Of a stretch of 64,000 bases of DNA, positions 29,522 to 50,156 are shown piece after piece. This DNA comes from Actinomycetota bacterium (GTDB lineage Bacteria > Actinomycetota > Geothermincolia > Geothermincolales > RBG-13-55-18): NCBI GenBank assembly GCA_013178005.1, contig JABLXL010000002.1:15220-79219 (forward strand). Direction: 5' to 3'. Below the pieces are notes generated by a model. It saw only the letters and a program-made list of their open reading frames with translations, was not told the origin of the DNA and searched no databases. Position numbers and translations under genes: made by a program. The stretch's first letter is position 1. Each line of letters starts with the position of its first letter.

Positions 29522-29718
29522 CCCTTCCTCCTCTCCGGAACGCCGCCCAGGGCTTACAACCATCAATTCTATGCCGGGCGCCCCTTTTCGCCCAGGCGTT
29601 ACCCCGGAGATGGCCCTGTGATATACTTTTAGCGCCGCCGCCGGCGGCCGTCCTAAGGGGTATTTCACGGACAGCTTTTCCGTCACATCGGAGGTCCTTG
29701 GCGCTAAAGGAGGTAGGA

Positions 29719-30603
29719 ATGGAGATCAAGAACGTCTTCGTAGTAGGTTCAGGCCTCATGGGGAGCGGCATCGCTCAGGTCAGCGCCTTTGCCGGTTACA
29801 AGGTGAAGATGCATGACGTGGAGGAGAAGTTCACCGCTAAGGGCATGGAGGCGATCAAGGCCTCCCTGGGGAAGTTCCTCTCCAAGGAGAAGATAACCCA
29901 GGAGCAGCACGACGCCGCCCTGGCCAATCTCTCCACCACCACCAGCCTCTCCGACGCGTCCGACGCCGACCTGGTGGTTGAGGCGGTGTTCGAGAAGCTG
30001 GAGGTTAAAAGCGAGGTATTCAAGACGCTCGACGAAGTGTGCCCCGAGCACACCATCCTGGCCACGAACACCTCGGCCATCCCCATATCCTCCATCGCGG
30101 CGGCCACGAAACGCCCGGACAAGGTGGTGGGCACGCATTTCTTCAGCCCCGTGCCCCTCATGCGCCTGTGCGAGATCATTCGCGGGCTGCAGACCTCGGA
30201 CGAGACCATGGAGGCGGCGGAGAAATGGGCGCAGTCGGTGGGCAAGGAAACCGTCCGCGTGCTCAAGGACCACGCGGGCTTCATCGCCAACCGGCTCTAT
30301 CTCCCCATGGGCATGGAGGCCGCCAGGATGCTCGAGGCGGGAGTGGCCACGCCGGAGGACATCGATAAGGCAATGCGGTTGGGTTACAACCTTCCCATGG
30401 GACCCCTGGAGCTAGCGGACATGACCGGCATCGACGTGCTCGCCAACGCCTGCATGGCCATCTATAACGATACCGGTGACCCCAAGTACTATCCCCCGCC
30501 GTTGATCCACCGCATGATAGCCTCCGGGCTGCTGGGAAGGAAGACGGGCAAGGGATATTACGACTACTCCAGCGGCAAGCAGGAGAGCTACTGGAAGGTG
30601 TGA
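29719..30603 (+). CDS. hbd: 3-hydroxybutyryl-CoA dehydrogenase
   Basis: An AAAGGAGG RBS precedes the start. The NAD Rossmann motif VVGSGLMGSGIAQ and the 3HCDH N- and C-terminal domains are present. Confidence 0.9.
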   Translation: MEIKNVFVVGSGLMGSGIAQVSAFAGYKVKMHDVEEKFTAKGMEAIKASLGKFLSKEKITQEQHDAALANLSTTTSLSDASDADLVVEAVFEKLEVKSEVFKTLDEVCPEHTILATNTSAIPISSIAAATKRPDKVVGTHFFSPVPLMRLCEIIRGLQTSDETMEAAEKWAQSVGKETVRVLKDHAGFIANRLYLPMGMEAARMLEAGVATPEDIDKAMRLGYNLPMGPLELADMTGIDVLANACMAIYNDTGDPKYYPPPLIHRMIASGLLGRKTGKGYYDYSSGKQESYWKV

Positions 30604-30627
30604 GAACGGACCGGAAACGGGGTTGCT

Positions 30628-31515
30628 GTGCGCGAGGACAGGGGAGAGGTCGTCGTTGAGAGAAGGCCCCCGGCGGGATGGGTGGTCCTTTCCCGACCCG
30701 AGCGCATGAACGCCCTCTCGCCCGAATCGGTGCGCGTCCTTTGGAGGGCTTTGAGTGAGCTCGAGGCCGACCCGGAGATCAGGGCCATAGTGATCACGGG
30801 CGCCGGAGAGGCTTTCTGTGCGGGAATGGAGCTGGCCGGGCTGGAGGGCGGGACTCCCCTGGCGGCGCGACGGCGCTGCCGCGAGGTGCAGGCACTCACG
30901 GGACGTATCTCCGATGCTCCCCTCCCCGTGATCGCCGCCGTGAACGGGGTGGCGTTGGGAGCGGGACTGGAGCTCTGTCTAGCCTGCGATTTCGCCCTAG
31001 CGTCCGAGCGAGCCATGTTCGGTTTCCCCGAAACCAAGTTGGGCATGATCCCCTGCGGCGGCGGCACCCAGAGGCTGGCGCGCCTGGTCGGCTTGCGCAG
31101 GGCGGAGGAGCTTGTGCTCACGGGGCGCGTCCTGACGGCGGAGGAAGCCGGAGACTGGGGCCTGGTGAACCGGGTGACCGGAGAGGGCGCGCTTGAGCGG
31201 GAGGCGGATGAGCTGGCGCGAAGGCTTGCATCCTGCGGAAAGCTGGCCCTTTACCAGGCTAAGCGCTGCGTGAGACACGCCCCGGATATGGGCCTCGAGC
31301 GCGGGCTTGAATACGAGGCGGAGTGTTTCGCCACCTGTTTCTCGAGCGGTGAGCCAACGGCAGCCCTCAGGGGCTACGCCGCGCAGGCGGAGGCCGGAGG
31401 GAAGGAGGATATTCCTGCCTCGACGACGTCTGGAGGAAGCGAGGGTTCACATGCCGCCGCGAGGGAGGAGGCGGGCAGGAGGGAGAGCGGGGAGGAAGAC
31501 GACATATTCGAGTAA
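30628..31515 (+). CDS. enoyl-CoA hydratase/isomerase (crotonase) family protein with acidic C-terminal tail
   Basis: A crotonase-fold oxyanion region (ITGAGEAFCAGMEL; AAVNGVALGAGLEL) is present. The gene has a GTG start. Confidence 0.8.
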   Translation: MREDRGEVVVERRPPAGWVVLSRPERMNALSPESVRVLWRALSELEADPEIRAIVITGAGEAFCAGMELAGLEGGTPLAARRRCREVQALTGRISDAPLPVIAAVNGVALGAGLELCLACDFALASERAMFGFPETKLGMIPCGGGTQRLARLVGLRRAEELVLTGRVLTAEEAGDWGLVNRVTGEGALEREADELARRLASCGKLALYQAKRCVRHAPDMGLERGLEYEAECFATCFSSGEPTAALRGYAAQAEAGGKEDIPASTTSGGSEGSHAAAREEAGRRESGEEDDIFE

Positions 31516-31723
31516 CTCCGCGTGGTCAGCGGGGTTATCTACCTCGGTCGGGAACGCGAAAAGCCGGCGTGGTTCGCGGTCGTTCAGGACAGGCCAAAAC
31601 CGAAACGTTGAGTAAGGGCAACGCACGGCGCGTCCGTGGCGCCTTGCCATGATGCCGGCCTTTGGGCGCGGAAGCCAACGGTTGCCTTTTGTCCCTGGAG
31701 GGATAGACATAGCGGGAGGTTGC

Positions 31724-32506
31724 ATGGAGTTCAAGTACCTGTTGGTGGAGACGGACGGCGAGGGCATCGCCACCATACGGCTCAACCGTCCCGAGGCCAG
31801 GAACGCCCTCAACCTGGAGCTCATCGCCGAGCTGGGAGAGGCGGCGGACATGCTGGCCAGGGACGAGGCCGTGCGGGCGGTGATCGTTACAGGCGGCGAG
31901 GAGAACTTCGCGGCCGGAGGCGACATCAAGGAGATGTCGGGCAAGTACGCGCCCGATATGCTGAACGCGTACGGGGCCGATCTTTCCGGTTTCGAGAAGA
32001 TCGAGCGCATACCCAAGCCGGTGATCGCCGCGGTGAGCGGCTACGCCCTGGGCGGAGGCACGGAGCTCGCCCTGGTGTGCGACATGATCGTGGCCTCGGA
32101 GACGGCCGTCTTCGGCATGCCGGAGATCACCCTGGGCATAATCCCTGGCGCTGGGGGCACCCAGAGGCTCCCCCGCCTCGTAGGGCCCAACCGGGCCAAG
32201 GAGATGATCTTCACCGGGTCCTTCTACGACGCCCGGGCATGCCTGGAGATGGGCCTGGTGAACAAGGTGGTGCCGGTGGAGGAGCTCATGACGGAGGCCA
32301 GGGAGCTGGCGAGGCGATGCATCCGCAACGGGGCCGTGGCGCTGGCCTGCGCCAAGGCGTGCGTAAACGAGGGGATGAACCTCGACCTCTACTCCGGGCT
32401 GGCATACGAGCGGAAGTGCTTTTCCCTGCTCTTCTCCACCGAGGACCAGAAGGAGGGCATGGCCGCCTTCAAGGAGAAGCGCAAGCCGGAGTTCAAGGGC
32501 CGCTGA
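31724..32506 (+). CDS. short-chain enoyl-CoA hydratase (crotonase, Crt-like)
   Basis: MEFKYLLVETDGEGIATIRLNRPEARNALN...AAVSGYALGGGTELALVCD... A GGGAGG RBS precedes the start. The long track ORF in this region is a read-through artefact of a different frame. Confidence 0.9.
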   Translation: MEFKYLLVETDGEGIATIRLNRPEARNALNLELIAELGEAADMLARDEAVRAVIVTGGEENFAAGGDIKEMSGKYAPDMLNAYGADLSGFEKIERIPKPVIAAVSGYALGGGTELALVCDMIVASETAVFGMPEITLGIIPGAGGTQRLPRLVGPNRAKEMIFTGSFYDARACLEMGLVNKVVPVEELMTEARELARRCIRNGAVALACAKACVNEGMNLDLYSGLAYERKCFSLLFSTEDQKEGMAAFKEKRKPEFKGR

Positions 32507-32583
32507 ACGCGCGGCGGAGCCTGAAGGAACAAACCCAAGGCGCCCCTTTGCCTTATCCGTATGTTCGAAGGGAGGAACACCAC

Positions 32584-33726
32584 GTGATCTCGTTTGAGTT
32601 GAGCGAGGAGCAGAAGGCCATCACCAAGGTGGCCCACGAGTTCGCCGAGAAGGAGATCCGCCCCGTGGCGGCGGAATACGACGAGGAGGAAAAGTACCCC
32701 GAGCAATTCATCGAAAAGGCCTTCAAGGCCGGCATGACCTACCTGTACGTTCCCGAGGAATACGGCGGCCAGGGGATGGATTTCCTCACCGCCTGCCTGG
32801 TCAACGAGGAGCTCTCCTGGGGATGCTGCGGTTTTGCCACCATCCTGGGGGCTAACGGCCTGGGGGTCACCCCGCTCCTGGTTGCGGGCACGGAGGAACA
32901 GAAGGAGAAGTACCTCTCGGACCTAACCTCCCGTCCCTCGCTGGCCGCCATGGCGCTCACCGAGCCCGATGCCGGGTCGGATGCGGCGGGGGTGAAGACC
33001 AGCGCGGTGCGGGATGGGGATGTATACGTGCTCAACGGCACCAAGTGCTTCATCTCCAACGGCGGCATCGCCGACCTCACCACCGTTTACGCCGTCACCG
33101 ACCCCTCCAAGGGAGTGCGCGGTCTCTCCTGTTTCCTGGTCCCCAAGGGGAACCCCGGCATCAGCGGGGGCAAGAAGGAGCGCAAGATGGGGGTGCGCGC
33201 CTCGGTCACCTCGGAGGTCATCCTCTCCGACTGCCGCGTGCCGGTCGAGGACCGGCTGGGCGAGGAGGGGGAGGGCTTCAAGATCGCCATGAAGACCCTG
33301 GACAAGGCGAGGGTGAACGTGGCATCGAATTCGGTGGGCATCGCCCGCGCCGCCTTCGAGGCGGCGGTGGATTACGCCAAGCAGAGGGTGCAGTTCGGCC
33401 GTCCCATCGCCGAGAACCAGGCCATCCAGTTCATGCTTGCGGACATGTCCATGGAAATCGAGGCCGCCAGGCTCATGTACATGAAGGCCGCATGGCTGGA
33501 GACCCAGGGGGCGAACTTCACCCGCGAGGCGGCCTACGCCAAGACCTTCTGTTCGGACATGGCCATGCGCGTGACCACCGACGTGGTGCAGGTCTTCGGC
33601 GGGTACGGGTACATGCGCGACTACCCGGTGGAGAAGTACATGCGCGACGCCAAGATAAACCAGATCTGGGACGGCACCAACCAGATACAGCGGATCGTGA
33701 TGGCCCGCAGCATCCTGGGAAAATGA
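32584..33726 (+). CDS. acyl-CoA dehydrogenase (butyryl-CoA dehydrogenase-like)
   Basis: GTG start after a GAAGGGAGGA RBS. The three ACAD domains are present and the C-terminus ends ...IYEGTNQIQ-like (IWDGTNQIQRIVMARSILGK). Confidence 0.9.
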   Translation: MISFELSEEQKAITKVAHEFAEKEIRPVAAEYDEEEKYPEQFIEKAFKAGMTYLYVPEEYGGQGMDFLTACLVNEELSWGCCGFATILGANGLGVTPLLVAGTEEQKEKYLSDLTSRPSLAAMALTEPDAGSDAAGVKTSAVRDGDVYVLNGTKCFISNGGIADLTTVYAVTDPSKGVRGLSCFLVPKGNPGISGGKKERKMGVRASVTSEVILSDCRVPVEDRLGEEGEGFKIAMKTLDKARVNVASNSVGIARAAFEAAVDYAKQRVQFGRPIAENQAIQFMLADMSMEIEAARLMYMKAAWLETQGANFTREAAYAKTFCSDMAMRVTTDVVQVFGGYGYMRDYPVEKYMRDAKINQIWDGTNQIQRIVMARSILGK

Positions 33727-33932
33727 CCGGGTCCGCGCACGGGCGGTCCCCGTCGGCCCGGGAGTCCTTGACGGGCGGGAAGAGTTGCGCACATTATGAT
33801 GCATGTGAGCCGGGCAGCAGCCCGGCGGCATGGTCCGCGGCGCCCCGCGGATGAGATGCGCGGGGCGCGCGAGAGTGAGCAGACAGGGAGGGTTCTCCAC
33901 GGAGAAACGGATGAGGCAAGAGGAGGTTGAGC

Positions 33933-35087
33933 ATGGACTTTGAACTCTCTCAGGAGCAGAAGGCCTTCTTCAAGGAGGTCAAGGAGTTCGCGGAAAAGGA
34001 GATCGCGCCCTTCACGGAGGAATACGACCGCAACAGCGAGTTCTTCTGGGATGGCTGGAAAAAGATGGGAGCAATGGGCCTCCTGGGCCTTCCCTTCCCC
34101 GAGGAGTACGGAGGGTCCGACGCGGGGGCCCTGGACACCGCCATCGCCATGGATGCCTTCGCGGCGGGGGGAGGGGACGCCGGCGTGTCGCTTTCCTGGG
34201 GTGCCCATACCATCATCGGGGGCGTGCCCATCTGGGTGATGGGAAACGAGGAACAGAAGAAGAAGTACCTCCCCGGAATGTGCAGCGGCGAGAAGGTGAG
34301 CTGCTTCGGGCTCACCGAGCCGGACGCCGGTTCCGACGCCGCTTCCCTGAAGACCACCGCGGTGCGGGACGGCGACGAGTACGTCATCAACGGCTCCAAG
34401 ATGTTCATCACCAACGGCCCCATCTGCGACCTTTGCATCGTGATGGCGGTGACCGACAAGGAAAAGGGCGGCGCGGGCATCAGCGCCTTCATCGTGGAGC
34501 GCGACACCCCAGGCTTCGAGGTCAGCCGTGAGCTGGACAAGATGGGCAACCGCACCTCTCCCACCGCCGAGCTGGCCTTCAACGACTGCCGCGTCCCGGC
34601 GGAGAACCTGCTGGGAGCGGAAGGCGAGGGTTTCTACGGGGTGGGCAAGGCCACCCTGGAGTGGGAGCGTGCCATCATGGTGGCCCCGGCGGTGGGCGGC
34701 ATGGAGTGCAACATCAACCGCTGTATCGAGTACGCCAAGGAGAGAAAGCAGTTCGGCAGGCCCATCGGCAAGTTCCAGGCGGTGGCCTTCAAGATCGCGG
34801 AGATGAAGTGCCTTCTTGACGCGGCTCGCCTCCTGGTCTACCGCGTGGCCTGGATGAAGGACCAGGGCATCCCGGCCATGATGGAGGCCTGCGTGTGCAA
34901 GCTCTTCGTCACCGAGAGCGCTTTCAAGGTGGCCAACGAGGCGGTGCAGATCTTCGGAGGCTACGGCTACATCCGCGAGTACCCGGTAGAGCGCACCCTC
35001 AGAGACGCCAAGCTGGGAACCATCGGGGCCGGCACCTCGGAGATCCAGAAGATGATCATCAGCCGGCTGCTCATGGGCAAGTTCTAG
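33933..35087 (+). CDS. acyl-CoA dehydrogenase (second paralog)
   Basis: A GAGGAGG RBS precedes the start. ACAD domains are present and the C-terminus ends ...GAGTSEIQKMIISRLLMGKF. Confidence 0.9.
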   Translation: MDFELSQEQKAFFKEVKEFAEKEIAPFTEEYDRNSEFFWDGWKKMGAMGLLGLPFPEEYGGSDAGALDTAIAMDAFAAGGGDAGVSLSWGAHTIIGGVPIWVMGNEEQKKKYLPGMCSGEKVSCFGLTEPDAGSDAASLKTTAVRDGDEYVINGSKMFITNGPICDLCIVMAVTDKEKGGAGISAFIVERDTPGFEVSRELDKMGNRTSPTAELAFNDCRVPAENLLGAEGEGFYGVGKATLEWERAIMVAPAVGGMECNINRCIEYAKERKQFGRPIGKFQAVAFKIAEMKCLLDAARLLVYRVAWMKDQGIPAMMEACVCKLFVTESAFKVANEAVQIFGGYGYIREYPVERTLRDAKLGTIGAGTSEIQKMIISRLLMGKF

Positions 35088-35117
35088 CGACCGGGCGAGG
35101 GCGGGGGTTCGCCGGGC

Positions 35118-35396
35118 GTGCGCGTGACGGTGCGTCTCACCGGGATCATCCGGCACCATGCCGGGGTCAAGGAAAAGACGTACGAGCTACCCGAGGGAGC
35201 GGTCGCCGCGGATCTGCTGCACCGCGTGGGAGAGGACCTCGGCCACCGCATGCCGCGCCAGTTGTGGGACGCGGACGAAGGGCGCTTCCACCCCATAATC
35301 AAGGTCTCACGCCGCGGGACCCCGTTCCTCGAGGATGGCGACCCCTTGAGGGACGGGGACGAGGTGTATGTCATCTCCCGCATGGCGGGCGGGTAG
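35118..35396 (+). CDS. MoaD/ThiS-like ubiquitin-fold small protein ending in Gly-Gly
   Basis: The 92-aa protein has the C-terminus ...YVISRMAGG followed by a stop. The size and GG terminus fit sulfur-carrier proteins. Confidence 0.55.
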   Translation: MRVTVRLTGIIRHHAGVKEKTYELPEGAVAADLLHRVGEDLGHRMPRQLWDADEGRFHPIIKVSRRGTPFLEDGDPLRDGDEVYVISRMAGG

Positions 35397-35556
35397 GGAA
35401 CCCCGGCGCCCCGCCCCGGCGGAATCGCCGGGCCGGGAGGCGAAGGCGTCAAGGCGCCGCCGGCTTTCCGGACGGCGCGAAGCGTCCATGTGTGCGGCGC
35501 GAAGCCGGAGGATCCGTACGGAGATGTCCTGGGAGGGGTACGGAGCGTAGGGAGGC

Positions 35557-36933
35557 GTGATGAGCGATTACGACGCGATCGTGGTGGGCGCGGGCATCGC
35601 CGGCCTGGGGGTGGCCACGCAGTTGCAGCAGGCGGGCAAGAAGACCTTGCTCCTGGAGATGTACCCCAAGGCGGGGGGGCGCATGCAGTCCTACGACCTG
35701 CCCGGAGGGTACCGCGTGGATATCGGGCTGCACATGATCGAGATGGGCAAGAAGGGGTATTGTCACGAGCTGGGCACGCGCGTGGGCAAGGAGTTCGAGT
35801 GGGCCGCTTTCTCCGTCACCCTGGACCTCTACGAGGGGGGGAAGTGGCAGGACATGCAGACCTTCATCCAGCTCACCGACGAGGAGAAGACGAGCTTCAT
35901 AGAGCTCATGAAGGGCATCGCGGAGATGGGCGAGCCCGACTTCAAGGCATGGGACAGCCGCTCCTTCGACGAATGGCTGGACCGCAACGGCCTCACCGGC
36001 AGCCTGCGCGAGGTATGGGAGAACATGAGCATGATCATGACCACCATACCCGACGCCAGGGAGCAATCGGCGGGGGAGTGCCTATACATCGCCAGGGAGG
36101 CGTTGATTAAGGGCAGGGCGGTGCTCATCGCCGCCTATCCCCGGGGAGGCATGTGGGGCGTGATCGGTCCCCTGGTGGACGCGTTCCAGGAAATGGGAGG
36201 AGAGCTCAGGCTAGGAGCCCGCGTGGAGCAGGTGGTTTTCGAGGGCAGGAAGGTCGCGGGCGTGAAGGTTGCCCGCAGGGGATCCAACCCCATCGCCAAG
36301 GAATGGCGCTTCGTCTCCACCGACCTGGTTACCGCCCCCCTGGTGGTGCTGGCCCTTCCCATCTGGCACCTGGACAAGGTGCTTGATTTCGACCGCCGTT
36401 ACTCCCCGCTGCCGGGTTGGTGGTTGAAGCGCATCGAGGACATCAGGGGGGAGAGGACGGGGCTGCTGGGCTACATCATCGCCACCCGCAGGCCTCTGTA
36501 CGAGCGCACGGTGTTCATGTCCGCGCTGAAGTCGCCGCGCACCGGGCTGCCCCTGCAGGCCTTCGCGCCCACCGCCTTCGATCCCGGGGTGGCCCCGCCC
36601 GACCGTTACCTGCTGGTCACCGACAACGTCGCCGAGCCCTGGGAGCTGGAGGACAAGTTCAACCTGGCGCGGCTCATGGAGCAGCACTGGGAGGACGTGA
36701 AGGAACTCTACTCCTTCGAGGACGGGGAGGTTGAGTTCGCCGTTCCCTACTACACAACCGGGTGCGACGGCCTGGCGCGCAAGCCGGGACTAACCGGGGA
36801 TTTCAAACCGGACGTGCAGGCGCCCTCCGTGGACGGCCTCTTCTTCGCGGGCGATACCTACCTGGGCAGGGGGCTGGCCATAGAGGGGGCGTCACGGTCC
36901 GCCATTCTCTGCGCCGAGCGCATCCTGGGCTGA
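35557..36933 (+). CDS. NAD(P)/FAD-dependent oxidoreductase (amine-oxidase/phytoene-desaturase-like fold)
   Basis: DYDAIVVGAGIAGLGVATQLQQAGKKTLLLE is a dinucleotide-binding motif. The C-terminus has ...FFAGDTY..G.. typical of the FAD fold. Confidence 0.8.
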   Translation: MMSDYDAIVVGAGIAGLGVATQLQQAGKKTLLLEMYPKAGGRMQSYDLPGGYRVDIGLHMIEMGKKGYCHELGTRVGKEFEWAAFSVTLDLYEGGKWQDMQTFIQLTDEEKTSFIELMKGIAEMGEPDFKAWDSRSFDEWLDRNGLTGSLREVWENMSMIMTTIPDAREQSAGECLYIAREALIKGRAVLIAAYPRGGMWGVIGPLVDAFQEMGGELRLGARVEQVVFEGRKVAGVKVARRGSNPIAKEWRFVSTDLVTAPLVVLALPIWHLDKVLDFDRRYSPLPGWWLKRIEDIRGERTGLLGYIIATRRPLYERTVFMSALKSPRTGLPLQAFAPTAFDPGVAPPDRYLLVTDNVAEPWELEDKFNLARLMEQHWEDVKELYSFEDGEVEFAVPYYTTGCDGLARKPGLTGDFKPDVQAPSVDGLFFAGDTYLGRGLAIEGASRSAILCAERILG

Positions 36934-37032
36934 GGGCCGCGCGCGGAGCGCCCTCCCGTTCCGGCCGCGCGTGCTATCATGGGGAGCGTGTTCCCGAGTT
37001 CCTGCGAGAGGAAAGGAGATGCCTCGAAGGTC

Positions 37033-38529
37033 ATGTCCCCCGGGAGGCGTAAGCTGCGCGTGTTGATCGTCTCTGATGCCTGGGGATTCGGGCTCATGGA
37101 GACCAGGCCGCATCCCCTGTGGCAGGTCCGCTACTGGGCCATCCGCAACAAGGCCCTCCTGGTGCCCGAGTACGGGGCCATGTACATCGCCGCCTTCCTC
37201 AAGGGAAGGGGCTTGGACGTCGAGGTCGTCAACCTGGTAGCCGACGTCTTCGAGGACGAGTCCTGGTTCAGGGAGGTGGAGGAGGGGTTGCCGGAACACG
37301 CCCCGTCCACCGCTCCCATCGGGAGCGGGGAGGCGATGACGCGCGCGCGGGAGAACCTGGAGGCAAGGGTCAAGAGTGCACAGCCGGACGTCATCCTCTT
37401 CCCCATCTCCATCTATTACATAGCCTTGCACGCCCGCGAGATGCTGAAGCGCTTGCGGGAGCTGGCGCCCGGAGCGGCCCTGGTGGCCGGCGGTGTGTAT
37501 TCCACCATGCATCCCCAGGAGATCATGGACGACGGAGCCGCGGACTTCGTAGTGCGGGGAGAGGGGGAGTGGACCGCCCTGGAGCTGCTGCGGGCCCTGG
37601 AGGAAAGGGGATCGAACGCGGACTTCTCCGGCATCGCCGGCCTCAGCTGGCGAGACCCCGACGGAGGGGTGGTGCATAACCCGGACAGGGAGCGGGAGAA
37701 AAACATCGACCTCTTCCCCCACATCTATACCGTCTCCGAGGAGTTCGCCATCGGTAACCGCTACCGCATCCTGAAATCCCTGAACCCCCTGGACGACTAC
37801 ATCCCGGGAGGCGGGTTCCTCACCTCCCGCGGCTGCCCGGAGGAATGCACCTTCTGCCTCGACCCCGCGGTCTGGAAGAGGAAGACGCGGTTCCATTCCC
37901 CGGGGTACGTGCGCGAGGTTCTGGATTACTGCTGGGGAAATTTCACTGCGGGCGAGAGGAGCTTCTACTTCGGTGACGCCACCTTCGCCCTCAACCGCCC
38001 GCGACTACGGGCGCTCCTGGAGACGGTCCGGGAGTTCCCCTTCACCTACCACATCCAGACGCGCGCCGATTCGCTCACCCCGGAGGTGCTGGAGGGCCTG
38101 CGGGAGAGCAACTTCGGGAGCGTGGCCATCGGGGCGGAATCGTTCGATGACCGCATCCTGCGGGAGGTGGTGAAGAAGCGCACCACCAGGGAGGAGATCC
38201 TCGGCGCCGTGAGGGCGGTGAAAGCCCACGGCATGACCCCCATCCTCACCTTCATCGCCGGCCTGCCGGGGGAGAGCCGGGAGAGCATGGAGCGCACGGT
38301 GGAGATCCTGCGCCAGGAGGGGATTACCGAGGCGACCTTCTTCCCCCTGGTGGTCTTCCGGGGCACCGCGCTTTACCGCACCTTCCTGGAGACCTTCGGC
38401 GAGGAGGAGCGGGAACGCCTGCGCCTCAATCCCTGGTCGGAGGAATTCTGTTTCGCGGGCGAGGAGTTCTCCTCCATGCAGGAGCTCATCGACTATACCC
38501 AGACGCTCAACGACGCCATCCGCGCCTGA
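37033..38529 (+). CDS. B12-binding-domain radical SAM enzyme
   Basis: The N-terminal KLRVLIVSDAWG... is a Rossmann-like B12-binding domain. The radical SAM motif is CPEECTFC. The start is ambiguous between 36979 and 37033. Confidence 0.85.
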   Translation: MSPGRRKLRVLIVSDAWGFGLMETRPHPLWQVRYWAIRNKALLVPEYGAMYIAAFLKGRGLDVEVVNLVADVFEDESWFREVEEGLPEHAPSTAPIGSGEAMTRARENLEARVKSAQPDVILFPISIYYIALHAREMLKRLRELAPGAALVAGGVYSTMHPQEIMDDGAADFVVRGEGEWTALELLRALEERGSNADFSGIAGLSWRDPDGGVVHNPDREREKNIDLFPHIYTVSEEFAIGNRYRILKSLNPLDDYIPGGGFLTSRGCPEECTFCLDPAVWKRKTRFHSPGYVREVLDYCWGNFTAGERSFYFGDATFALNRPRLRALLETVREFPFTYHIQTRADSLTPEVLEGLRESNFGSVAIGAESFDDRILREVVKKRTTREEILGAVRAVKAHGMTPILTFIAGLPGESRESMERTVEILRQEGITEATFFPLVVFRGTALYRTFLETFGEEERERLRLNPWSEEFCFAGEEFSSMQELIDYTQTLNDAIRA

Positions 38530-38655
38530 GTCCGCGCGCCCCCTCGACCCACAGCTTGATGCGCGGGCGAGGAGTTCTCCTCCATGCAGGAGCTCATCGA
38601 CTATACCCAGACGCTCAACGACGCCATCCGCGCCTGAGTCCGCGCGCCCCCTCGA
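38442..38655. repeat. tandem duplication (~95 bp, 2 identical copies, ~25-bp spacer) of the 3' end of the radical-SAM gene
   Basis: 38442-38535 and 38561-38655 are identical. Both copies include the last ~27 codons plus the stop and 20 nt downstream. Confidence 0.85.
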
Positions 38656-38741
38656 TTGGCGCGCTTTCGCGGGTGAGGATATTATAGGAGTAGAACACGG
38701 AGCACGTTGCCGAGTTTACGGGAAGGACGCTTCGCCGGGGA

Positions 38742-39830
38742 GTGAGGGAAATGAACACCAAGGAGTTGAGGACCTTCGCGCGCAGCAGGATCTTCTCCAC
38801 TTTCGAGGAAAGGGCCGCCAAGGGGGGTTTCGACCGCGGTTTGTGGAGGGAGATGGCGGAGTCAGGGGTCGTCGGGATGGCCCTGGACAAACGGTACGGC
38901 GGCGGGGGAGCCGGGATGGGGGAATTCGTGGAATGCGTGTCCCTTCTCGCCGGCGAGGGCCTTGACCTGGGGCTGACCCTGAGCCTGATCGATCATGTCG
39001 TGCTCTGTGCCTACCCCCTGCAGGTCTTCGGCTCGAAGTGGTTGAAGGAGCGCTACCTGCCCCCGCTGTGCAAGGGCGACTGCATAGGGGCGGCGGCGGT
39101 TTCGGAGGATGACGGCGGCGGGGACCCGAAACGCATGCGGAGCTCGGCGGCGCGCGCGGGAGACGGCTATACCCTGAGCGGGGTCAAAGGACCGGTGACC
39201 AACGCCCCCGTGGCCGACCTCTTCCTGGTGGTGGCGGCCACCGATCCCGGCGCGGGGAAGGACGGGCTTTCCGCTTTCCTGGTGGAGAGGGCGGCTGGCG
39301 TGCGGGTGGAGGAGCTGGGGCTGGGATTTCTTCCCACCTCTCCCCACGGGCGCGTGATCCTGGACGGGGTGCGGGTCTCCGCGGATCACCTCCTGGGGGA
39401 AGAGGGGTGGGGGCACGAGAAGATCTCCCGCTCTCTCTTCATCTGGGAGAGGAGCGCCTTGATCCCGGTAGTGGTCTCGTACCTCGAGCGCTGGCATCAC
39501 CTGGTGGTTTCCAGCCTGGACCCCGAGGGCATCTCGCCCGATTTGCGCACTCTCCTGGCCCGCAGGAAGGTGGAGCTCACCGCGTACCGCGCCCTTGGTT
39601 CCCGACTCCTGGAACTCACCTTCGGCGAGGCGGAGAACGGGCGCGAGCGCCTGGAGCTCCTGCTCTTTTTCGGCAAAACCCTGCCGGAGTGGGTGGAGAG
39701 CATGCGCGCCGCGGTGGAGGAGGCCAGGGTGCCGCTGGACGAGACCCTGCGGGCCATGGACCGTGACCTGCGCCTCCTGGAGGTGGGCGGCTCACTTCTC
39801 GACTGGCAGTTCCAGAAACTCCTTTTCTGA
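38742..39830 (+). CDS. acyl-CoA dehydrogenase family protein (third paralog, divergent)
   Basis: The ACAD N- and middle-domain pattern is present (...GDPKRMRSSAARAGDGYTLSGVKGPVTNA...). The C-terminal domain is shorter and less conserved. Confidence 0.7.
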   Translation: MREMNTKELRTFARSRIFSTFEERAAKGGFDRGLWREMAESGVVGMALDKRYGGGGAGMGEFVECVSLLAGEGLDLGLTLSLIDHVVLCAYPLQVFGSKWLKERYLPPLCKGDCIGAAAVSEDDGGGDPKRMRSSAARAGDGYTLSGVKGPVTNAPVADLFLVVAATDPGAGKDGLSAFLVERAAGVRVEELGLGFLPTSPHGRVILDGVRVSADHLLGEEGWGHEKISRSLFIWERSALIPVVVSYLERWHHLVVSSLDPEGISPDLRTLLARRKVELTAYRALGSRLLELTFGEAENGRERLELLLFFGKTLPEWVESMRAAVEEARVPLDETLRAMDRDLRLLEVGGSLLDWQFQKLLF

Positions 39831-39841
39831 ACCTGCATGGT

Positions 39842-40060
39842 GCGGAATCGTCCCGGCGCGCTTCCCGGTCTTAAGAAGTCCCTGAAGACTTCCCCGTCAT
39901 CCTGACAGAGCAAGCAAGTTCGGCGGGGAAAAGAGTCGGTCCTCCGGGCGTTCAATCCGTGAACCATGTTGCCGGGTCCGTTCTCCGCATGCGGAATCGT
40001 CCCGGGGCGCTCTCCGGGTTGAAGAAATCCCGGGAGCCCTCCCAGTCATACTTACAAAGC
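39842..40060. repeat. imperfect direct repeat (2 x ~80 bp) in the leader region of the glycyl-radical-enzyme gene
   Basis: tgcggaatcgtcccgg(c/g)gcgct(t/c)tccgg(t/g)(c)t(t)aagaa(g/a)tccc...agcaagcaa appears twice. Confidence 0.6.
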
Positions 40061-40282
40061 AAGCAAACAAGATAGTTGGGGAGGGAGAAGTATCCTACCG
40101 ATTAAGCCGGATTATACGGCGCTACGCTTGCCTTAACTTGGGTCAGGGAGCGCTTTTTGCTAACCTGTTAAGTGACGGGCGTCATTTCGCCACGGAGCGC
40201 GCGGATATATCCTGGCGACAGGAGCAGGCGTGTTCTTCGAGGCCGGGCGGGTCCGGCCGGAACCCTGGGAGGTGCGGAGAGG

Positions 40283-42682
40283 ATGAGGGAGAGCGAGGTC
40301 ATATCGCCCGAGCGGATATGGCGTGCGTCGGACAAGCTCACGCCGCGGGTGCGCAGGCTGCGCGAGGAATATTATTCCATCGAGGAAAGGCCGTACTTCC
40401 GCAACGAGGTCATGCCCTTCACCACCGGGACGGACTGGGACGTGGTGTGGTCCCCGGTGAACTGGGGCATCATCCCCGAGCTGGTGCCCTTCATGGGGGC
40501 TTTCTCCGAGTCGTTGCGCGCATCGGCCCGCGTGGTGGACCTGCCGGACGGCTTCTGGGGGCGTTCGCTGGTCATGCGGAAGGCCCTTTTCTTCCGGGAG
40601 GTATGCCGCCGCCACCTGCCGGTGCGTATCCTGGAGGGCGAGCTCATCGTGGGAGGCCAGTTCAACACCGCGCTTTCCAGGTGCCTGAACCGTCGTGAGG
40701 CCAGGAAATGGAAGAAATCGGTGGATAAGTGGTGGAAGCGGGCGGCGGAGATAAACGAGCTGGGCATCGGCAACGCCGGAGCGGTGCCGGGCCACCTCAT
40801 CCCGGATTATCCCCGCGTGCTCAAGTCCGGCTTCTCGGGCATCCGCGCGGAGCTCGCGGAGATGCTCGCGAAGGTCGATGACGAGGCCCACGCCGATTTC
40901 CTGCGTGCCCTCATGGAATGCTGCGATGCCGCGCGGGAGATCGCGGCGCGCTACGCGGAGGAGGCCGACAGGCTTGCGGAGTCGGAAGCGGACGCGGCCA
41001 GGGCGGAGGAGCTGCGCGAGATAGCGCGCATCTGCCGCAAGGTGCCCTGGGAGCCGGCGGAGACTTTCCACGAGGCACTGCAGGCGCTGTGGTTCACGCA
41101 CATGCTGGTCATGGCCGCGGAGTCCTATCCCGGGGCGGGGCTCTCCCACGGGCGCTTCGACCAGTACATGCTTCCCTATTACCGGGCCGACCTGGAGGCC
41201 GGGAGGCTCACGCGCGAGCGGGCTAAGGAACTGCTCCAGTGCTATTGGATAAAGCACAATTACGCCTATGACTTCCAGTGCCGGGTGATGAACAACCAGG
41301 GTATCAACTCCGGCTTCGGGCAGCTCATCACCATCGGGGGGATAAACGCGGACGGAAGCGACGCCTCCAACGAGCTCACCTGGCTGATCCTCGAGGTCAT
41401 CGAGGAGATGAACATGCTCGAGCCCAAGCCCAATATCAGGCTGCATCAGGGGACCCCGGAGCCGCTCCTGCGCAGGGTGGCGGAGATGATCTCCGGGGCG
41501 CAGGGCTCCCCCTTCCTCATGAACTTCGACGAGAACTCCATGCGCGGGCTCGCTTGGCAGGGTCTGCCCGAGGACCGCCTCTGGGATTATGCCCCCGTGG
41601 GATGCCTGGAGAACACTCTCCAGGGGGACGACCGGTCCGGCACCGTGGACGTCAACGTCAACCTGGCCAAGGCGGTGGAGCTGGTTTTCTTCCGCGGCCG
41701 GGACGCAGCAACCGGAAGGCGCATCGGGCCGGATACGGGCAGGGTGGAAGACCTTTCCACCTGGGAGGATTTCAAGGCCGCCTTCGAGGCCCAGATGAAG
41801 GCGCTCATGGACCACATGCTCTCCATCAGCGACGAGGCCGACCGCATCCGCTCCACCTGGGAGCCCACCCCCTACCTCTCTACCCTGGTGGGGGGTTGCG
41901 CGGAGAGCGGTAAGGACATCACCCAGGGAGGGGCGCGCCACAACTACATCACCGTGGAGGGCGTGGCCTTCGCCACCGCGGCGGATTCCCTGGCGGCGGT
42001 GAAGAAGCTGGTTTACGAGGACGGCAGGATCAAGATGGATGATCTTTCCAGGGCCATACGGGAGAACTTCGAGGGCCACGAGGCGCTGCGCCAGACCCTG
42101 ATCAACAAGGCCCCCAAGTACGGCAACGACGACGATTACGCCGACGAGGTGGCGCGATACCTCTCGCGGCTGTGGACGGTGATGGTCAGCGAGCGCGTGT
42201 CCCCGGCCACCGGTAGGAGATACCGCGCCGGTTACCTCTCGTGGAATTACTGGATAGCCTTCGCTCCCGGCACGGCGGCCACGCCCGACGGCAGGAGGAA
42301 GGGGACCTTCCTTTCCAACGCCATCGGCCCCGTGGACGGGACGTGCCACAACGGCCCCACGGCGGAGCTCCTCTCCGTGGGCAAGATGGGCCTGGAGACG
42401 GCGCCCAACGGCGCCTCCCACACCATGAGCTTCAGCCCTTCCATGCTGCGCGACGAGGAGCACGTGTCCAAGCTCATGGCCTTCCTGCGCGCCTACGGCG
42501 AGAAGGGAGGCACGGCGCTGCAGGTGAACGTCATCGACCCGGAGACCCTGCGCGAGGCGCAGCGCAGGCCCGAGGATTACCGCAACCTGCTGGTGCGCGT
42601 TACCGGATACAACGCGTATTTCGTCATGCTGGGCCGGGAGATGCAGGATGAGATCATCGCGAGGGAATCCCATGAGCTCTGA
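40283..42682 (+). CDS. glycyl radical enzyme (PFL2/dehydratase-eliminase-like subclass), substrate unknown
   Basis: The C-terminal glycyl-radical motif is RVTGYNAYFV. The catalytic-loop Cys is followed by Glu (VGCLEN), as in glycerol/propanediol/choline/hydroxyproline GRE eliminases. The protein is about 800 aa. An RBS (GGAGGTGCGGAGAGG) precedes the start. The co-located activase gene overlaps its 3' end. Confidence 0.9.
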   Translation: MRESEVISPERIWRASDKLTPRVRRLREEYYSIEERPYFRNEVMPFTTGTDWDVVWSPVNWGIIPELVPFMGAFSESLRASARVVDLPDGFWGRSLVMRKALFFREVCRRHLPVRILEGELIVGGQFNTALSRCLNRREARKWKKSVDKWWKRAAEINELGIGNAGAVPGHLIPDYPRVLKSGFSGIRAELAEMLAKVDDEAHADFLRALMECCDAAREIAARYAEEADRLAESEADAARAEELREIARICRKVPWEPAETFHEALQALWFTHMLVMAAESYPGAGLSHGRFDQYMLPYYRADLEAGRLTRERAKELLQCYWIKHNYAYDFQCRVMNNQGINSGFGQLITIGGINADGSDASNELTWLILEVIEEMNMLEPKPNIRLHQGTPEPLLRRVAEMISGAQGSPFLMNFDENSMRGLAWQGLPEDRLWDYAPVGCLENTLQGDDRSGTVDVNVNLAKAVELVFFRGRDAATGRRIGPDTGRVEDLSTWEDFKAAFEAQMKALMDHMLSISDEADRIRSTWEPTPYLSTLVGGCAESGKDITQGGARHNYITVEGVAFATAADSLAAVKKLVYEDGRIKMDDLSRAIRENFEGHEALRQTLINKAPKYGNDDDYADEVARYLSRLWTVMVSERVSPATGRRYRAGYLSWNYWIAFAPGTAATPDGRRKGTFLSNAIGPVDGTCHNGPTAELLSVGKMGLETAPNGASHTMSFSPSMLRDEEHVSKLMAFLRAYGEKGGTALQVNVIDPETLREAQRRPEDYRNLLVRVTGYNAYFVMLGREMQDEIIARESHEL

Positions 42683-43625
42683 GCCGGACGCCGTGACCGG
42701 GGTGGTCTTCAACCTGCAGCGGTATTCCACCGAGGACGGCCCCGGCATCCGCACCACCGTTTTCCTCAAGGGATGCCCCATGCGCTGTCCCTGGTGCCAT
42801 AACCCGGAAGGCCTGGCGAGGGACCCCCAGTTGGTCTGGTACGAGGTGCGCTGCATAGGAGCGCACGACTGTCTGGCCGCCTGCCCGCGCGGGGCCCTGA
42901 CCCTAACCCCCGAGGGCATGGTGATCGACAGGGAGCGCTGCGACGCCTGCGGGAGGTGCGAGGAGGCCTGTCCCGCCGCCGCCCTGGAGGTCATCGGAAA
43001 GGTGAGGACGGTTGAGGACGTGGCGGCCGAGGCGTTGAGGGACCGCGTCTTCTACGAAAAGTCGGGGGGAGGGGTGACCCTCTCCGGGGGGGAGCCCGCG
43101 CTGCAGTTCGACTTCGCCCTCTCGCTCATGCGCAAGCTGCGCGACGAGGGGGTGCACCTGGCCCTGGACACCTGCGGCGGGGTGAGCTGGGAGAGGCTGG
43201 GGCCCCTGGTGGAGCTCGCGGACCTGGTGCTGTTCGACCTCAAGGTCATGGACGCGGAAAAGCACCGCGCCTACACCGCGGTCCCGCTAGCGCTGGTGCT
43301 GGACAACGCGCGCGCCGTGTCCCGCGCCGGAAAACCGATGTGGGTACGCACCCCGATCATCCCCGGGTACACCGACGGCGAGGAGAACGTGAGGGCCATA
43401 GCCCGCTTCATCAGGGACGAGCTTCCCGCCGTGGAGAGGTACGACCTGCTTGCCTTCAACAACACCTGCGACGCCAAGTACCGGCGCCTGGACATGGTCT
43501 TTCCCCTCGCCGGGGAGGGGCTGATAGCGGAGGACTGGATGGCCCGGCTTGCCGAGGCGGCCGAGGACGAGGGTCTGAGCATCGCCCGCTGGTCGGGGGC
43601 GACGGCGAGGGCGAAGGGGGGATGA
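42672..43625 (+). CDS. glycyl-radical-enzyme activating enzyme (radical SAM with two extra ferredoxin-like 4Fe-4S motifs)
   Basis: CPMRCPWCHNPE is the radical SAM CxxxCxxC motif. CLAACPRGAL and CDACGRCEEACP are additional cluster motifs typical of GRE activases of the dehydratase class. Confidence 0.9.
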   Translation: MSSEPDAVTGVVFNLQRYSTEDGPGIRTTVFLKGCPMRCPWCHNPEGLARDPQLVWYEVRCIGAHDCLAACPRGALTLTPEGMVIDRERCDACGRCEEACPAAALEVIGKVRTVEDVAAEALRDRVFYEKSGGGVTLSGGEPALQFDFALSLMRKLRDEGVHLALDTCGGVSWERLGPLVELADLVLFDLKVMDAEKHRAYTAVPLALVLDNARAVSRAGKPMWVRTPIIPGYTDGEENVRAIARFIRDELPAVERYDLLAFNNTCDAKYRRLDMVFPLAGEGLIAEDWMARLAEAAEDEGLSIARWSGATARAKGG

Positions 43626-43628
43626 GGG

Positions 43629-44423
43629 ATGGAGATGCCCAAGGAGGTCCTGGACCTGTTCGCGGAGGAGATGGCCGCGAAGTTCCTTGCCACCGTGGAT
43701 CCCGAGGGAAAGCCCAACGTGGCCCTGATCGTGACCCTGCAGCCTCCGCCGGACGGCAGGCGCGACAGGCTCATCTTCGGTGAGTTCCTGATGTGGAAGA
43801 GCAAGGAGTACCTGCGGGATAACCCCAGGGTGGCCGCGGCGGTGGTGAACACCAAGCTGCGCATGGCCTCCCTCACCGGCGACTTCCGGGGTTTCGAGAA
43901 GACCGGTCTCTACAAGGACGCCCTTGATTCCTCTCCTCTCATGCGCTACAACGCCTATTCCGGAGTGAGGGCCGCCGGGGTGATCGACGTGCGCGAGGTG
44001 TGGCCGGCGCGCTCCGCGTCCATGGCCGCGGTGCCCCTCGACTTCCTTCGCGTGAGGGCGCACCGGCGGGTGGAGGAAAACGGCTCGGTGCCCGTTCCGC
44101 CCATGGTGCGGGAGAAGTTCGTCAAGCTCACCTCGGTGAAGGCGCTGGCGGTCATGGGCGATGACGGTTACCCCCGCATATACCCGGTCATGGCGGCCTC
44201 GCCGGCGGGGAGGGGGGGATTCGCCCTACGCGTGACCTCGTACAATCGCGAGCTCGCCCAGGTGGAGGTCCCGTGTCCGGCGGCGCTTTGCGTGCTCACC
44301 TTCGACGTCAAAAGCTACAAGGTTAAGGGCGAACTCCATCCCCTAGGCCGCAGCACGATGCTCTTCCGCGTCAAGGAGGTCTATAACGCCATGCCTCCCC
44401 TGGCCGGAGACCTCATCGTATAG
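43629..44423 (+). CDS. pyridoxamine-5'-phosphate-oxidase-like (split-barrel FMN/F420-binding) family protein, tandem-domain
   Basis: Two halves each resemble the PNPOx-like split barrel (FLATVDPEGKPNVALIV..., ...LAVMGDDGYPRIYPVMA...). A GGGGGGATGAGGG RBS precedes the start. Confidence 0.5.
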   Translation: MEMPKEVLDLFAEEMAAKFLATVDPEGKPNVALIVTLQPPPDGRRDRLIFGEFLMWKSKEYLRDNPRVAAAVVNTKLRMASLTGDFRGFEKTGLYKDALDSSPLMRYNAYSGVRAAGVIDVREVWPARSASMAAVPLDFLRVRAHRRVEENGSVPVPPMVREKFVKLTSVKALAVMGDDGYPRIYPVMAASPAGRGGFALRVTSYNRELAQVEVPCPAALCVLTFDVKSYKVKGELHPLGRSTMLFRVKEVYNAMPPLAGDLIV

Positions 44424-44544
44424 AGACACGACTCTCCCCAAGGCCTCCCTTTTTCCGCCAGGTCAAGCGTCGATATGTTGCTCGCTCTTGCCCGCTTCTT
44501 CCGGAAAAGCAAGCAACAAGCGAAGACGCGGACATATTTCGCTT

Positions 44545-45630: not shown

Positions 45631-45715
45631 GTCTTCCTCCTTTCCCTTGCCCCTCCCGGACGCGGCGTCGCACGCCGTACACATATTAACATTTATGTAT
45701 CCCTGGGGGCAGCGC

Positions 45716-45900
45716 TAAGAATAGGGTCGTAAGAATAGGGTCGTATCTTGAATTTTTCCTCGCTCTGCTTAAGCGTGGCTCTTCGCCGCAAAGCGTTGGC
45801 AATACGCTTCGACTCCTAAGAATGGGGTCGTATCTTGAATTTTTCCTCGCTCTGCTTAAGCGTGGCTCTTCGCCGCAAAGCGTTGGCAATACGCTTCGAC
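45716..45900. repeat. tandem repeat (2 x ~100 bp) sharing the GGGTCGTATCTT...TTTTTC head motif with the 4.4-kb array
   Basis: agaatggggtcgtatcttgaatttttcctcgctctgcttaagcgtggctcttcgccgcaaagcgttggcaatacgcttcgactcct is repeated. It contains an internal palindrome gcgtattgccaacgc-like region (gcaaagcgttggcaatacgcttcg). Confidence 0.7.
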
Positions 45901-46029
45901 TCCTGTTTTCAACCCGTGCCTGGAGCTCAACCACCGGTTATTTCTCGGCCAGCGTCGAGCCCGTCCGTCTTTTCCGCCCGCATTCCCGGGAGAAGAACCA
46001 AAATCCTTAATATGTCCGTCTGTCGCTCA

Positions 46030-46380: not shown

Positions 46381-46430
46381 CCAGGCCTAAGGCCCGAGGC
46401 GGGGAAGGGGGGAAGAGGGGTATATAATCT

Positions 46431-48865: not shown

Positions 48866-48887
48866 CCGTCGCTCCTTTATAGCTATC

Positions 48888-49511: not shown

Positions 49512-49514
49512 CGC

Positions 49515-50144: not shown

Positions 50145-50156
50145 ATTCTTCCTCTC

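Follow-up and report, generated by a model that had tools for sequence, protein, structure and literature searches.

The 64-kb window of contig JABLXL010000002.1 (GCA_013178005.1), by which we mean the whole stretch of DNA analysed, carries a gene for a glycyl radical enzyme (GRE), followed by the genes of its activase (AE) and of a split-barrel protein (SB). The region examined here, 29719-44423, had been described in an earlier note as a GRE and activase embedded in a beta-oxidation-like cluster and as a candidate anaerobic catabolic pathway. We think it rather probable that the region is instead a composite, in which a conserved GRE-AE-SB core is accompanied by lineage-specific neighbours that do not form one pathway with it. 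We favour this reading because an adenine deaminase gene lies at the 5' border, the window is collinear with a related locus (L001), the B12-radical-SAM gene occurs elsewhere in relatives, and a motif lies in the 450-nt spacer ahead of the GRE gene. The GRE-AE-SB module, rather than the beta-oxidation embedding, is the more interesting finding.

The SB gene was found in 129 loci, which fall into 23 lineage groups (clusters at 60% identity, not phylogeny). Proteins of the window were searched against 74 loci, and neighbours were clustered from all open reading frames (ORFs) of 141 loci, including 80 metagenome loci fetched via the SB gene. Within 8 kb of SB, a GRE gene is present in 21 of the 23 groups and an activase gene in 20, and the shortfalls are mostly contig ends. 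The order GRE, AE, SB on one strand occurs in 86 loci, with median gaps of -11 and +10 nt; the AE-SB gap of the window is 3 nt. Distant SB homologues (profile E 1e-29 to 1e-40) are likewise preceded by an activase gene, and in L159 and L160 the distant SB is also preceded by a GRE, which is 49% identical to the window GRE and keeps all motifs.

Other neighbours are much less constant. The next most recurrent one belongs to the acyl-CoA dehydrogenase (ACAD) superfamily and occurs in five of the 23 groups, and all others occur in three groups or fewer. Among the 137 non-redundant neighbours from outside Actinomycetota and Thorarchaeota (17 groups), 182 Pfam families were recorded, none of them in more than three proteins, and no conserved transporter or downstream enzyme pointing to a substrate was seen. 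In some loci, such as L076, the trio stands alone among unrelated genes. Since the trio recurs and no other neighbour is general, the conserved unit consists of three genes. Synteny among Thorarchaeota (thiamine-type ABC transporter/ThiN, GNAT, ACT, MFS and Memo genes) reflects close relatedness and was not used. The earlier proposal of one 15-kb pathway is not supported by this comparison: activase and SB are the only invariant partners of the GRE. Looking for the same neighbourhood in related genomes, as the earlier note had suggested, recovered the trio across phyla, and the beta-oxidation genes, those of the ACAD family apart, proved to be lineage-specific.

Class and family of the glycyl radical enzyme

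Domains were called with Pfam, families with the curated cut-offs of NCBIfam, and structures were predicted with AlphaFold (AF2 for the GRE). The GRE shows the features of the PFL-like superfamily: the barrel, a C-terminal glycyl domain with the RVxG motif (RVTG776YN) and a cognate radical SAM activase encoded beside it. Its Cys loop reads V-G441-C442-L443-E444, and this motif confirms the earlier placement in the C-x-E (eliminase/dehydratase) subclass. The activase is rightly described as the GRE's own: it scores well above the TIGR02494 cut-off, carries a CX3CX2C motif (CPMRCPWC) and two extra ferredoxin-like clusters, and its start overlaps the end of the GRE gene, stop codon included, by 35 nt. 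This overlap and the 3-nt gap before SB leave no room for small Fe-S subunits, which the earlier note had reported as missing. HiPIP-like beta or gamma and rubredoxin-like delta ORFs were not found, and the 450-nt upstream spacer holds no conserved ORF. The enzyme is not assigned to PFL itself, as it has a single Cys (G441-C442) instead of two adjacent ones and scores 111 bits against a cut-off of 994 with the PFL model.

The GRE missed every NCBIfam equivalog cut-off by a factor of two or more (HpsG, 462 bits against 1000; HypD, 458 against 1100; HpfG, 432 against 1000; CutC, 390 against 1050). It also lies below the cut-off of the PFL2/glycerol-dehydratase subfamily TIGR01774 (511 against 678 bits). 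The best matches of the PDB sequence search were CutC, glycerol dehydratase (GD), HypD, propanediol dehydratase and IseG, all with about 350-390 bits and from residue 170 onward only; PFL scored 94 bits. The AF2 model (pLDDT 80) resembles all solved eliminases and isomerases about equally (TM score 0.73-0.79, 25-30% identity); its input alignment was shallow (at least 64% identity) and the model is therefore used for the fold only. In a rough neighbour-joining tree the family is a compact clade, which a long branch sets apart from other GREs, and the archaeal sequences stand in at least three places. Identity among family members is 49-97%, and beyond the family the next-best GREs reach at most 38%. 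Tight clustering with a characterised family was thus not observed in phylogeny or active-site alignment, and the earlier description of the GRE as uncharacterised holds: it is not close to PduC-like enzymes, HypD, CutC, IslA or others of known function.

Two assignments to known enzymes were weighed and both are very improbable. That the GRE is orthologous to a characterised eliminase, such as trans-4-hydroxy-L-proline dehydratase, would agree with several JGI records, in which family members automatically receive the name of that enzyme, and with short-segment PDB searches, in which the Cys loop was nearest to the hydroxyproline-type enzymes HpzG and HpyG (a weak hint). However, the HypD model falls far short of its cut-off, identity to HypD is 27%, substrate-contact positions differ, and the tight clade and its long branch separate the family from other GREs. 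Equally improbable is an alkyl- or benzylsuccinate synthase that activates hydrocarbons by adding them to fumarate and is followed by bss/bbs-like beta-oxidation. Hermod- and Thorarchaeota GREs have been labelled Ass/Bss at 29-38% identity (PMC8163825), and beta-oxidation-type genes do lie close by in the window. But MasD and TutD score only 242 and 212 bits against about 390 for the eliminases, X-succinate synthases came last among PFL-like GREs in the structural search (23% identity), the beta, gamma and delta small subunits are missing and have no room, and C-x-E plus His is the eliminase/isomerase motif (PMC13450708). The analogy with bss plus bbs drawn in the earlier note fails on enzyme class.

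In the protein search, over 120 clusters matched with 64-97% identity. Most are from metagenome-assembled genomes (MAGs) of Geothermincolia-type Actinomycetota (Candidatus Solincola, Geothermincolales, Anoxymicrobiaceae), and many have automatic names, 'formate C-acetyltransferase' or 'trans-4-hydroxy-L-proline dehydratase'. With one genome per GTDB species, 55 loci contain full-length GRE relatives of 53-91% identity. By record title, the bacterial carriers are Actinomycetota, Dehalococcoidia, Anaerolineae, Chloroflexia, Acidobacteriota, Hydrogenedentota, delta-proteobacterial and Polyangia genomes, and the Asgard carriers are Thor-, Hel- and Promethearchaeota and Atabeyarchaeia. Every one of these 55 loci is from a MAG, which accounts for the neglect of the family so far.

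When 51 full-length members, bacterial and Asgard archaeal, were aligned, 169 of the 800 positions proved invariant. These include G171-H172, YPG-x-G287, G347-Q-L, V-G-C-L-E-N-T, R452, T455-V-D457, N459, R649-x-G651-Y-L-S-W655-N-Y and RVTGYN; F346 is kept in 50 of the 51 and is Tyr in one. C-x-E is kept by eliminases and isomerases; its Glu works on the hydroxyl of the substrate, and in GD the leaving OH receives its proton from H164 (PMC13450708). Pocket residues were mapped by pairwise sequence alignment to GD, IseG and CutC. GD H164 corresponds to H172, GD H281/S282 to A286/G287, GD Y339 to G347, GD D447 to V456 and GD Y640 to L653; the sulfonate-binding R676 of IseG corresponds to G651, and CutC D216 to H172. 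As aligned, the GRE thus retains the putative catalytic dyad, E444 and H172, but has lost the residues that specify the substrate, none of the mapped substrate-contact residues of the characterised eliminases being kept.

The same alignment predicts a pocket with extra room at G287, G347 and G651 and with F346, L653 and W655 as its lining. Two residues from the position of the sulfonate-binding Arg of IseG, and on the same strand face, is the invariant R649; R452 belongs to the Cys loop. The small or hydrophobic replacements together with the two invariant arginines suggest a longer substrate, probably larger than glycerol or choline, that would have an anionic end (carboxylate, phosphate or CoA). 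In another short-segment PDB search, also a weak hint, the strand at about 645-704 was nearest to YbiW (E 5e-7).

We infer that the GRE, in which all catalytic elements of the C-x-E class are present, eliminates from or isomerises a substrate that is hydroxylated and probably anionic. As judged from the sequence, the activase would install the radical on G776, and C442 would be the thiyl site. By analogy with GD, HypD, CutC and YbiW, the thiyl radical would take a hydrogen from the carbinol carbon and E444 would deprotonate the hydroxyl of that carbon, and H172 would protonate a vicinal O-, N- or S-leaving group or a ring heteroatom. Either a 1,2-elimination or a ring-opening isomerisation would in this way yield a carbonyl product. 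A lyase for carnitine or 3-hydroxy-4-X-butyrate was considered as a speculative example only; a quaternary-amine substrate is disfavoured by H172 and by the missing aromatic cage.

The split-barrel partner

The SB protein was predicted by AlphaFold (39-sequence alignment) with a pLDDT of 92.4 as two split beta-barrels. It thus has the fold of the PNPOx-like/FMN-binding superfamily in the model, in two copies fused in one chain, and each half resembles small FMN-binding proteins. Of the earlier label 'PNPOx-like flavoprotein', the split-barrel part is supported by this model, and the Pfam PNPOx_N match is sub-threshold. There is no NCBIfam match. The SB family has 552 representatives at E <=1e-3 among 1.84 billion, and it adjoined this GRE family in each lineage examined whose flanking sequence was long enough.

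As a guess, SB may serve as electron donor to the activase in place of flavodoxin, or may act on the product. A new three-component GRE system, in which a flavin- or deazaflavin-binding SB pseudo-dimer is an obligatory partner and the substrate is novel (possibly a hydroxylated acid or CoA-linked), is possible but on balance rather unlikely. If it were true, SB could be a built-in electron donor for activation where a suitable flavodoxin is absent, or a redox or handling partner for the product, and the family would offer the first functionally tractable PFL-like GRE of Asgard archaea.

The accessory subunits of GREs listed in a 2026 review are HiPIP-like and rubredoxin-like only, and its text contains neither 'FMN' nor 'flavoprotein' (PMC13450708). 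Our literature search found no description of SB as a GRE partner. It also found nothing that links glycyl radical with Dehalococcoidia and acyl-CoA dehydrogenase, with Geothermincolia, or with similarity network and acyl-CoA.

Neighbouring genes and competing readings of the region

As shown in Table 1, all genes listed in the earlier note are present on the plus strand and in the order claimed, on the evidence of Pfam, NCBIfam and GC3. The window has a G+C content of 61-70%, and the GC3 coding signal is 0.78-0.90 in every listed gene.

Table 1. Features of the window in and around the GRE-AE-SB module (bits are given against the curated cut-off where one applies).
Feature	Position	Strand	Evidence or remark
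Fatty-acid-CoA-ligase-like gene	20116-21636		
Direct repeat of ~155 nt, copy 1	29029-29183		100% identical to copy 2
Direct repeat of ~155 nt, copy 2	29236-29389		
hbd	29719-30603	+	3HCDH_N + 3HCDH, E 1e-66
Crotonase 1	30628-31515	+	ECH_1, E 6e-58
Crotonase 2	31721-32506	+	ECH_1, E 1e-75
ACAD1, full-length	32590-33726	+	best NCBIfam acryloyl-CoA reductase AcrC, 466 bits against 640
ACAD2, full-length	33933-35087	+	best NCBIfam AcrC, 411 bits against 640
ThiS/MoaD-like protein, 92 aa, GG C-terminus	35118-35396	+	Pfam ThiS E 7e-4, below gathering score
CrtI/amine-oxidase-type FAD enzyme	35557-36933	+	Pfam; best NCBIfam HpnE, far below cut-off
B12-binding radical SAM enzyme	36979-38529	+	Pfam; best NCBIfam HpnJ, far below cut-off
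Divergent ACAD (dACAD)	38742-39830	+	Pfam recognises N and M domains only
Direct repeat of 77 nt, copy 1	39841-39917		81% identical to copy 2
Direct repeat of 77 nt, copy 2	39990-40066		
Candidate upstream motif	40172-40217	+	alignment of 10 Solincola-type loci
GRE, 800 aa	40280-42682	+	PFL-like PF02901 E 6e-144; Gly_radical PF01228 E 3e-26
GRE activase (AE)	42648-43625	+	TIGR02494 330 bits against 174; Radical_SAM, Fer4_12, Fer4
SB protein, 264 aa	43629-44423	+	PNPOx_N 22.9 bits against 28.1
FAD2, FAD/NAD(P)-binding protein, weakly geranylgeranyl-reductase-like	44545-45684	-	NAD_binding_8/DAO; GG-red-SF 40 bits, below cut-off
447-aa protein	46431-47774	+	no Pfam or NCBIfam match
Rnf-type ferredoxin:NAD+ oxidoreductase operon	47984-53141	-	RnfB-like, RnfA/E, RnfD, RnfC

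The window is collinear with L001, a relative at 69% identity, over more than 40 kb, from ApbA/MMPL genes to ECF transporter, methyltransferase and hexapeptide genes, and a large part of the synteny is therefore common backbone. Immediately 5' of hbd stands an adenine deaminase gene (592 bits against an equivalog cut-off of 472.5); as its product passes this cut-off, it was ruled out as an amidohydrolase of the pathway. hbd, the crotonases and the ThiS-like, CrtI-like and B12-radical-SAM genes accompany the trio only in Solincola-type loci and partly in L001. Full-length ACAD1 and ACAD2 with the hbd-crotonase block are found with the trio in Solincola-type loci only; hbd and one crotonase also occur in L001. 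The ThiS-like gene and its GG end are kept in relatives.

All 246 proteins of the B12-radical-SAM family at E <=1e-20 come from Geothermincolia-type Actinomycetota, and the best PDB relative of the enzyme is 9ccb. Orthologues of about 50% identity (L161 and L162) stand among DNA-ligase and purine-biosynthesis genes or near genes of the 2-hydroxyglutaryl-CoA-dehydratase family (HGD-D-type), with no GRE nearby. With orthologues elsewhere in relatives, the enzyme was ruled out as an obligatory partner of the GRE. A link of the ThiS-like, CrtI-like and B12-radical-SAM genes with the GRE is doubtful.

The ACAD genes have a wider distribution. In Dehalococcoidia and Acidobacteriota an ACAD gene lies between GRE and activase with gaps of 10-20 nt (L018, L019, L021, L043, L046), and a related ACAD is present in L048. 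In L032 the trio is followed by genes for an ACAD, an SCP-x-type thiolase-like protein, two crotonases, a beta-keto-acid cleavage enzyme and Amidohydro_2. The trio of L159 and L160, the most divergent one examined, comes after genes for a family-III CoA-transferase and a 930-970-aa molybdopterin oxidoreductase and adjoins multihaem cytochrome and NrfD genes. The earlier link of the GRE with a beta-oxidation-like cluster is supported in so far as ACADs recur next to it in independent lineages; the single 15-kb pathway is not supported. That the GRE product enters CoA-thioester metabolism or meets an ACAD-family flavoenzyme in bacteria is plausible because ACAD genes recur with the module in five lineage groups, and we put it forward tentatively, as a possibility of some weight.

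The note had called the two full-length ACADs of the window butyryl-CoA-dehydrogenase-like. The ACAD class is correct and the butyryl label is loose, AcrC being the best family and below its cut-off. In several ACADs near the trio (in the window and in L018, L019, L032, L043 and L048) the position of the catalytic base of medium-chain ACADs has no Glu. The motif at this position is IWDGTNQ in ACAD1, IGAGTSE in ACAD2 and in the ACAD of L032, and WTGTSE in the Chloroflexota ACAD between GRE and activase; IGAGTSE of ACAD2 is of the isovaleryl-CoA-dehydrogenase type. As read from these motifs, the Glu-less ACADs may rely on a different base, or their reaction may be other than a simple dehydrogenation. 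The best PDB match of dACAD was the prolyl-ACP dehydrogenase 4irn (E 2e-34, residues 7-251).

The 450-nt spacer parts the GRE gene from the upstream dACAD gene. In the window it contains GTGACGGGCGTCAT, followed after about 20 nt by TATATC, about 100 nt 5' of the GRE start. Across loci the pattern is GTGACGGnGATCAT and then, about 20 nt on, (C/T)ATAnC; it is present about 100 nt before the start codon in 9 of 10 related Solincola-type loci. The exact pattern occurs once in the window, and its left part is near-palindromic (TGACG..CGTCA). A conserved ribosome-binding site, GGGAGGTG, precedes the ATG of the GRE. The motif is a candidate for the trio's own promoter or regulator site and, by its sequence, may be a Crp/Fnr-type site with a -10 element. 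The Rfam scan of the whole window at gathering thresholds gave no match, so there is no known riboswitch ahead of the GRE. The 77-nt direct repeat lies in the same spacer (spacing 149 nt), and the spacer is shorter in related loci according to the alignment.

Several observations weigh against the composite reading with a three-gene core, or limit it. The dACAD and FAD2 genes stay with the trio in Geothermincolia despite a rearranged gene order: dACAD orthologues accompany it in three Geothermincolia lineage groups, where the copies 3' of the SB gene in L002 and L077 have 31-36% full-length identity to that of the window, and FAD2 copies of 56-92% identity are near the trio in 25 loci of three lineage groups. 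The functional unit is thus likely to be larger than three genes in Geothermincolia. Neighbour themes also vary by lineage (acyl-CoA; sugar; creatininase with peptide or amino-acid transport). The lineage groups are identity clusters, the ORFs of the loci were called by a crude heuristic, and every member of the family is from a MAG. The pocket assignments come from pairwise sequence alignments, and the AF2 model of the GRE has pLDDT below 50 at 332-344, 654-663, 681-695 and 775-800, that is, in pocket loops and the glycyl domain. With PNPOx_N below its gathering score, the flavin role of SB is predicted only. Finally, consensus scans for sigma-70 promoters and terminators over 29000-46500 gave counts no higher than in shuffled sequences.

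The sugar theme comprises a GH51 alpha-L-arabinofuranosidase gene directly after SB in nine Actinomycetota metagenome loci (among L097-L107 and L114), GH172 directly after SB in L075, a GHMP kinase in Atabeyarchaeia and an aldo-keto reductase in Hydrogenedentota. The GH51 and GH172 adjacency is not explained by an acyl-CoA reading. The nitrogen theme comprises a creatininase-family gene between GRE and activase in L048, and peptide or amino-acid binding proteins and an OPT transporter. In Geothermincolia the flavour is that of lipids, with a squalene-hopene-cyclase-like toroid, GPAT, an alpha/beta-hydrolase and sub-threshold HpnE, HpnJ and HpnN matches. As no theme is general, none identifies the substrate.

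The reading of the whole 15-kb run as one catabolic pathway, with a first radical cleavage by the GRE and processing of its product by hbd, the crotonases, the ACADs and the B12-radical-SAM, ThiS-like and FAD enzymes, appears unlikely to us. The genes are co-oriented, their order is kept in at least 12 Solincola-type loci, CoA-linked genes are near the trio in unrelated lineages (the Chloroflexota/Acidobacteriota ACAD, L032, L159/L160), and a fatty-acid-CoA-ligase-like gene is present in the window. A concrete but speculative version would lead by elimination from a 3-hydroxy-4-substituted C4 acid to acetoacetate and acetoacetyl-CoA and then to hbd, crotonase and ACAD, without a thiolase. However, the order is kept only in close relatives (79-91% GRE identity) that share the backbone collinearity, the gene directly 5' of hbd is the housekeeping adenine deaminase, and the intergenic gaps are 130-450 nt, with a conserved motif before the GRE. 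B12-radical-SAM orthologues are unlinked to a GRE elsewhere, and in most lineages the trio is alone. Thiolase, CoA-transferase and EtfAB are absent from the window ORFs scanned with Pfam, as the earlier note had stated, and the test for a butyrate-type bcd-etfAB-hbd-crt-thl operon failed, with no Etf or thiolase domain in these ORFs.

Less probable still is that in Geothermincolia the trio belongs to a lipid or isoprenoid biosynthetic cluster, where the GRE would dehydrate a polyol or a hydroxylated lipid moiety and CrtI-like, geranylgeranyl-reductase-like, ACAD-like and B12-radical-SAM enzymes and an RND exporter would take part. The best sub-threshold NCBIfam matches do fit such a cluster (HpnE for the FAD enzyme, HpnJ for the B12-radical-SAM enzyme, HpnN-like for the MMPL/HAE3 transporter, GG-reductase for FAD2); other Geothermincolia have a squalene-hopene-cyclase-like or prenyltransferase toroid, an alpha/beta-hydrolase, TetR and GPAT near the trio, and the GRE pocket is largely hydrophobic by alignment. 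Yet all Hpn and GG-reductase matches are far below cut-off, the B12-radical-SAM gene is unlinked in relatives, the transporter is part of the shared backbone, and other phyla and Asgard archaea show the trio alone or beside sugar, amino-acid or CoA genes.

Some further features lie at the borders of the region. The two copies of the ~155-nt repeat (start-to-start spacing 206-207 nt) sit in the unusually long spacer, about 700 nt, between the adenine deaminase gene and hbd; the repeat may stem from a recent duplication or be an artefact of assembly, or it may be a regulatory element present twice. Downstream of the trio, the 447-aa protein is kept in two Geothermincolia lineage groups, and in L001 its homologue is directly 3' of the SB gene. 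The Rnf operon, 3.5 kb past the trio, is an insertion relative to the collinear locus L001.

Comparison with known systems

The GRE-AE-SB module defines a sharply bounded family whose pocket residues do not vary. It occurs in several bacterial phyla and in three or more Asgard lineages, and SB is its marker gene. Its biochemical assignment would extend GRE chemistry by a substrate or reaction, and by a type of accessory protein, that are new to it, and would show what use anaerobic sediment and subsurface organisms make of the system. It would probably also overturn 'alkyl/benzylsuccinate synthase' and 'hydroxyproline dehydratase' labels in metagenomic carbon-cycle reconstructions, the Thorarchaeota part of this depending on whether the GREs of PMC8163825 belong to the family.

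Like the bss and bbs operons, the window has a GRE near genes for ACAD, enoyl-CoA hydratase and hydroxyacyl-CoA dehydrogenase. However, the GRE class differs, small subunits, CoA-transferase and thiolase are lacking in the window, and these neighbours are kept in one lineage only.

Like the GRE 1,2-eliminases (GD, propanediol dehydratase, HypD, CutC, IslA/IseG and HpsG/HpfG), the window GRE has the full-length fold, the G-C-x-E loop, RVxG, a His where GD has H164, and an activase that carries two additional clusters. In contrast to them, it has only 25-30% identity, scores below the family cut-offs and has its contact residues replaced; none of these enzymes has an SB-type third gene, and the window system is without microcompartment genes. 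The isomerases YbiW/PflD (anhydroglycolysis) and HplG also share C-x-E, YbiW being the nearest relative of the strand at about 645-704, and sugar-type neighbours occur in some lineages of the family. They differ in overall similarity (about 320 bits, 25-27% identity), in context, as no aldolase or PTS genes are present here, and in the partner protein.

Characterised PFL-like GREs are all bacterial, no archaeal one has a known function, and whole GRE clades lack validation (PMC13450708). PFL2 of Archaeoglobus fulgidus (2F3O) and the Asgard 'Ass/Bss' GREs are, like the archaeal members of this family, PFL-like GREs with a single catalytic Cys and a debated or unknown function. 2F3O is no closer to the window GRE than the bacterial eliminases are (347 bits, 28% identity), and it differs from the present family in the SB partner. 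The Thorarchaeota GREs found here (among L027-L056 with relatives, L022 and L044) are C-x-E family members with an SB partner. For these, the Ass/Bss annotation is probably wrong, provided that they are the genes so labelled in PMC8163825. SB itself has 14-20% identity to small FMN-binding split-barrel proteins (D. vulgaris FMN-bp, Swol_0183, YviC and HupZ) and differs from them in its fusion of two copies.

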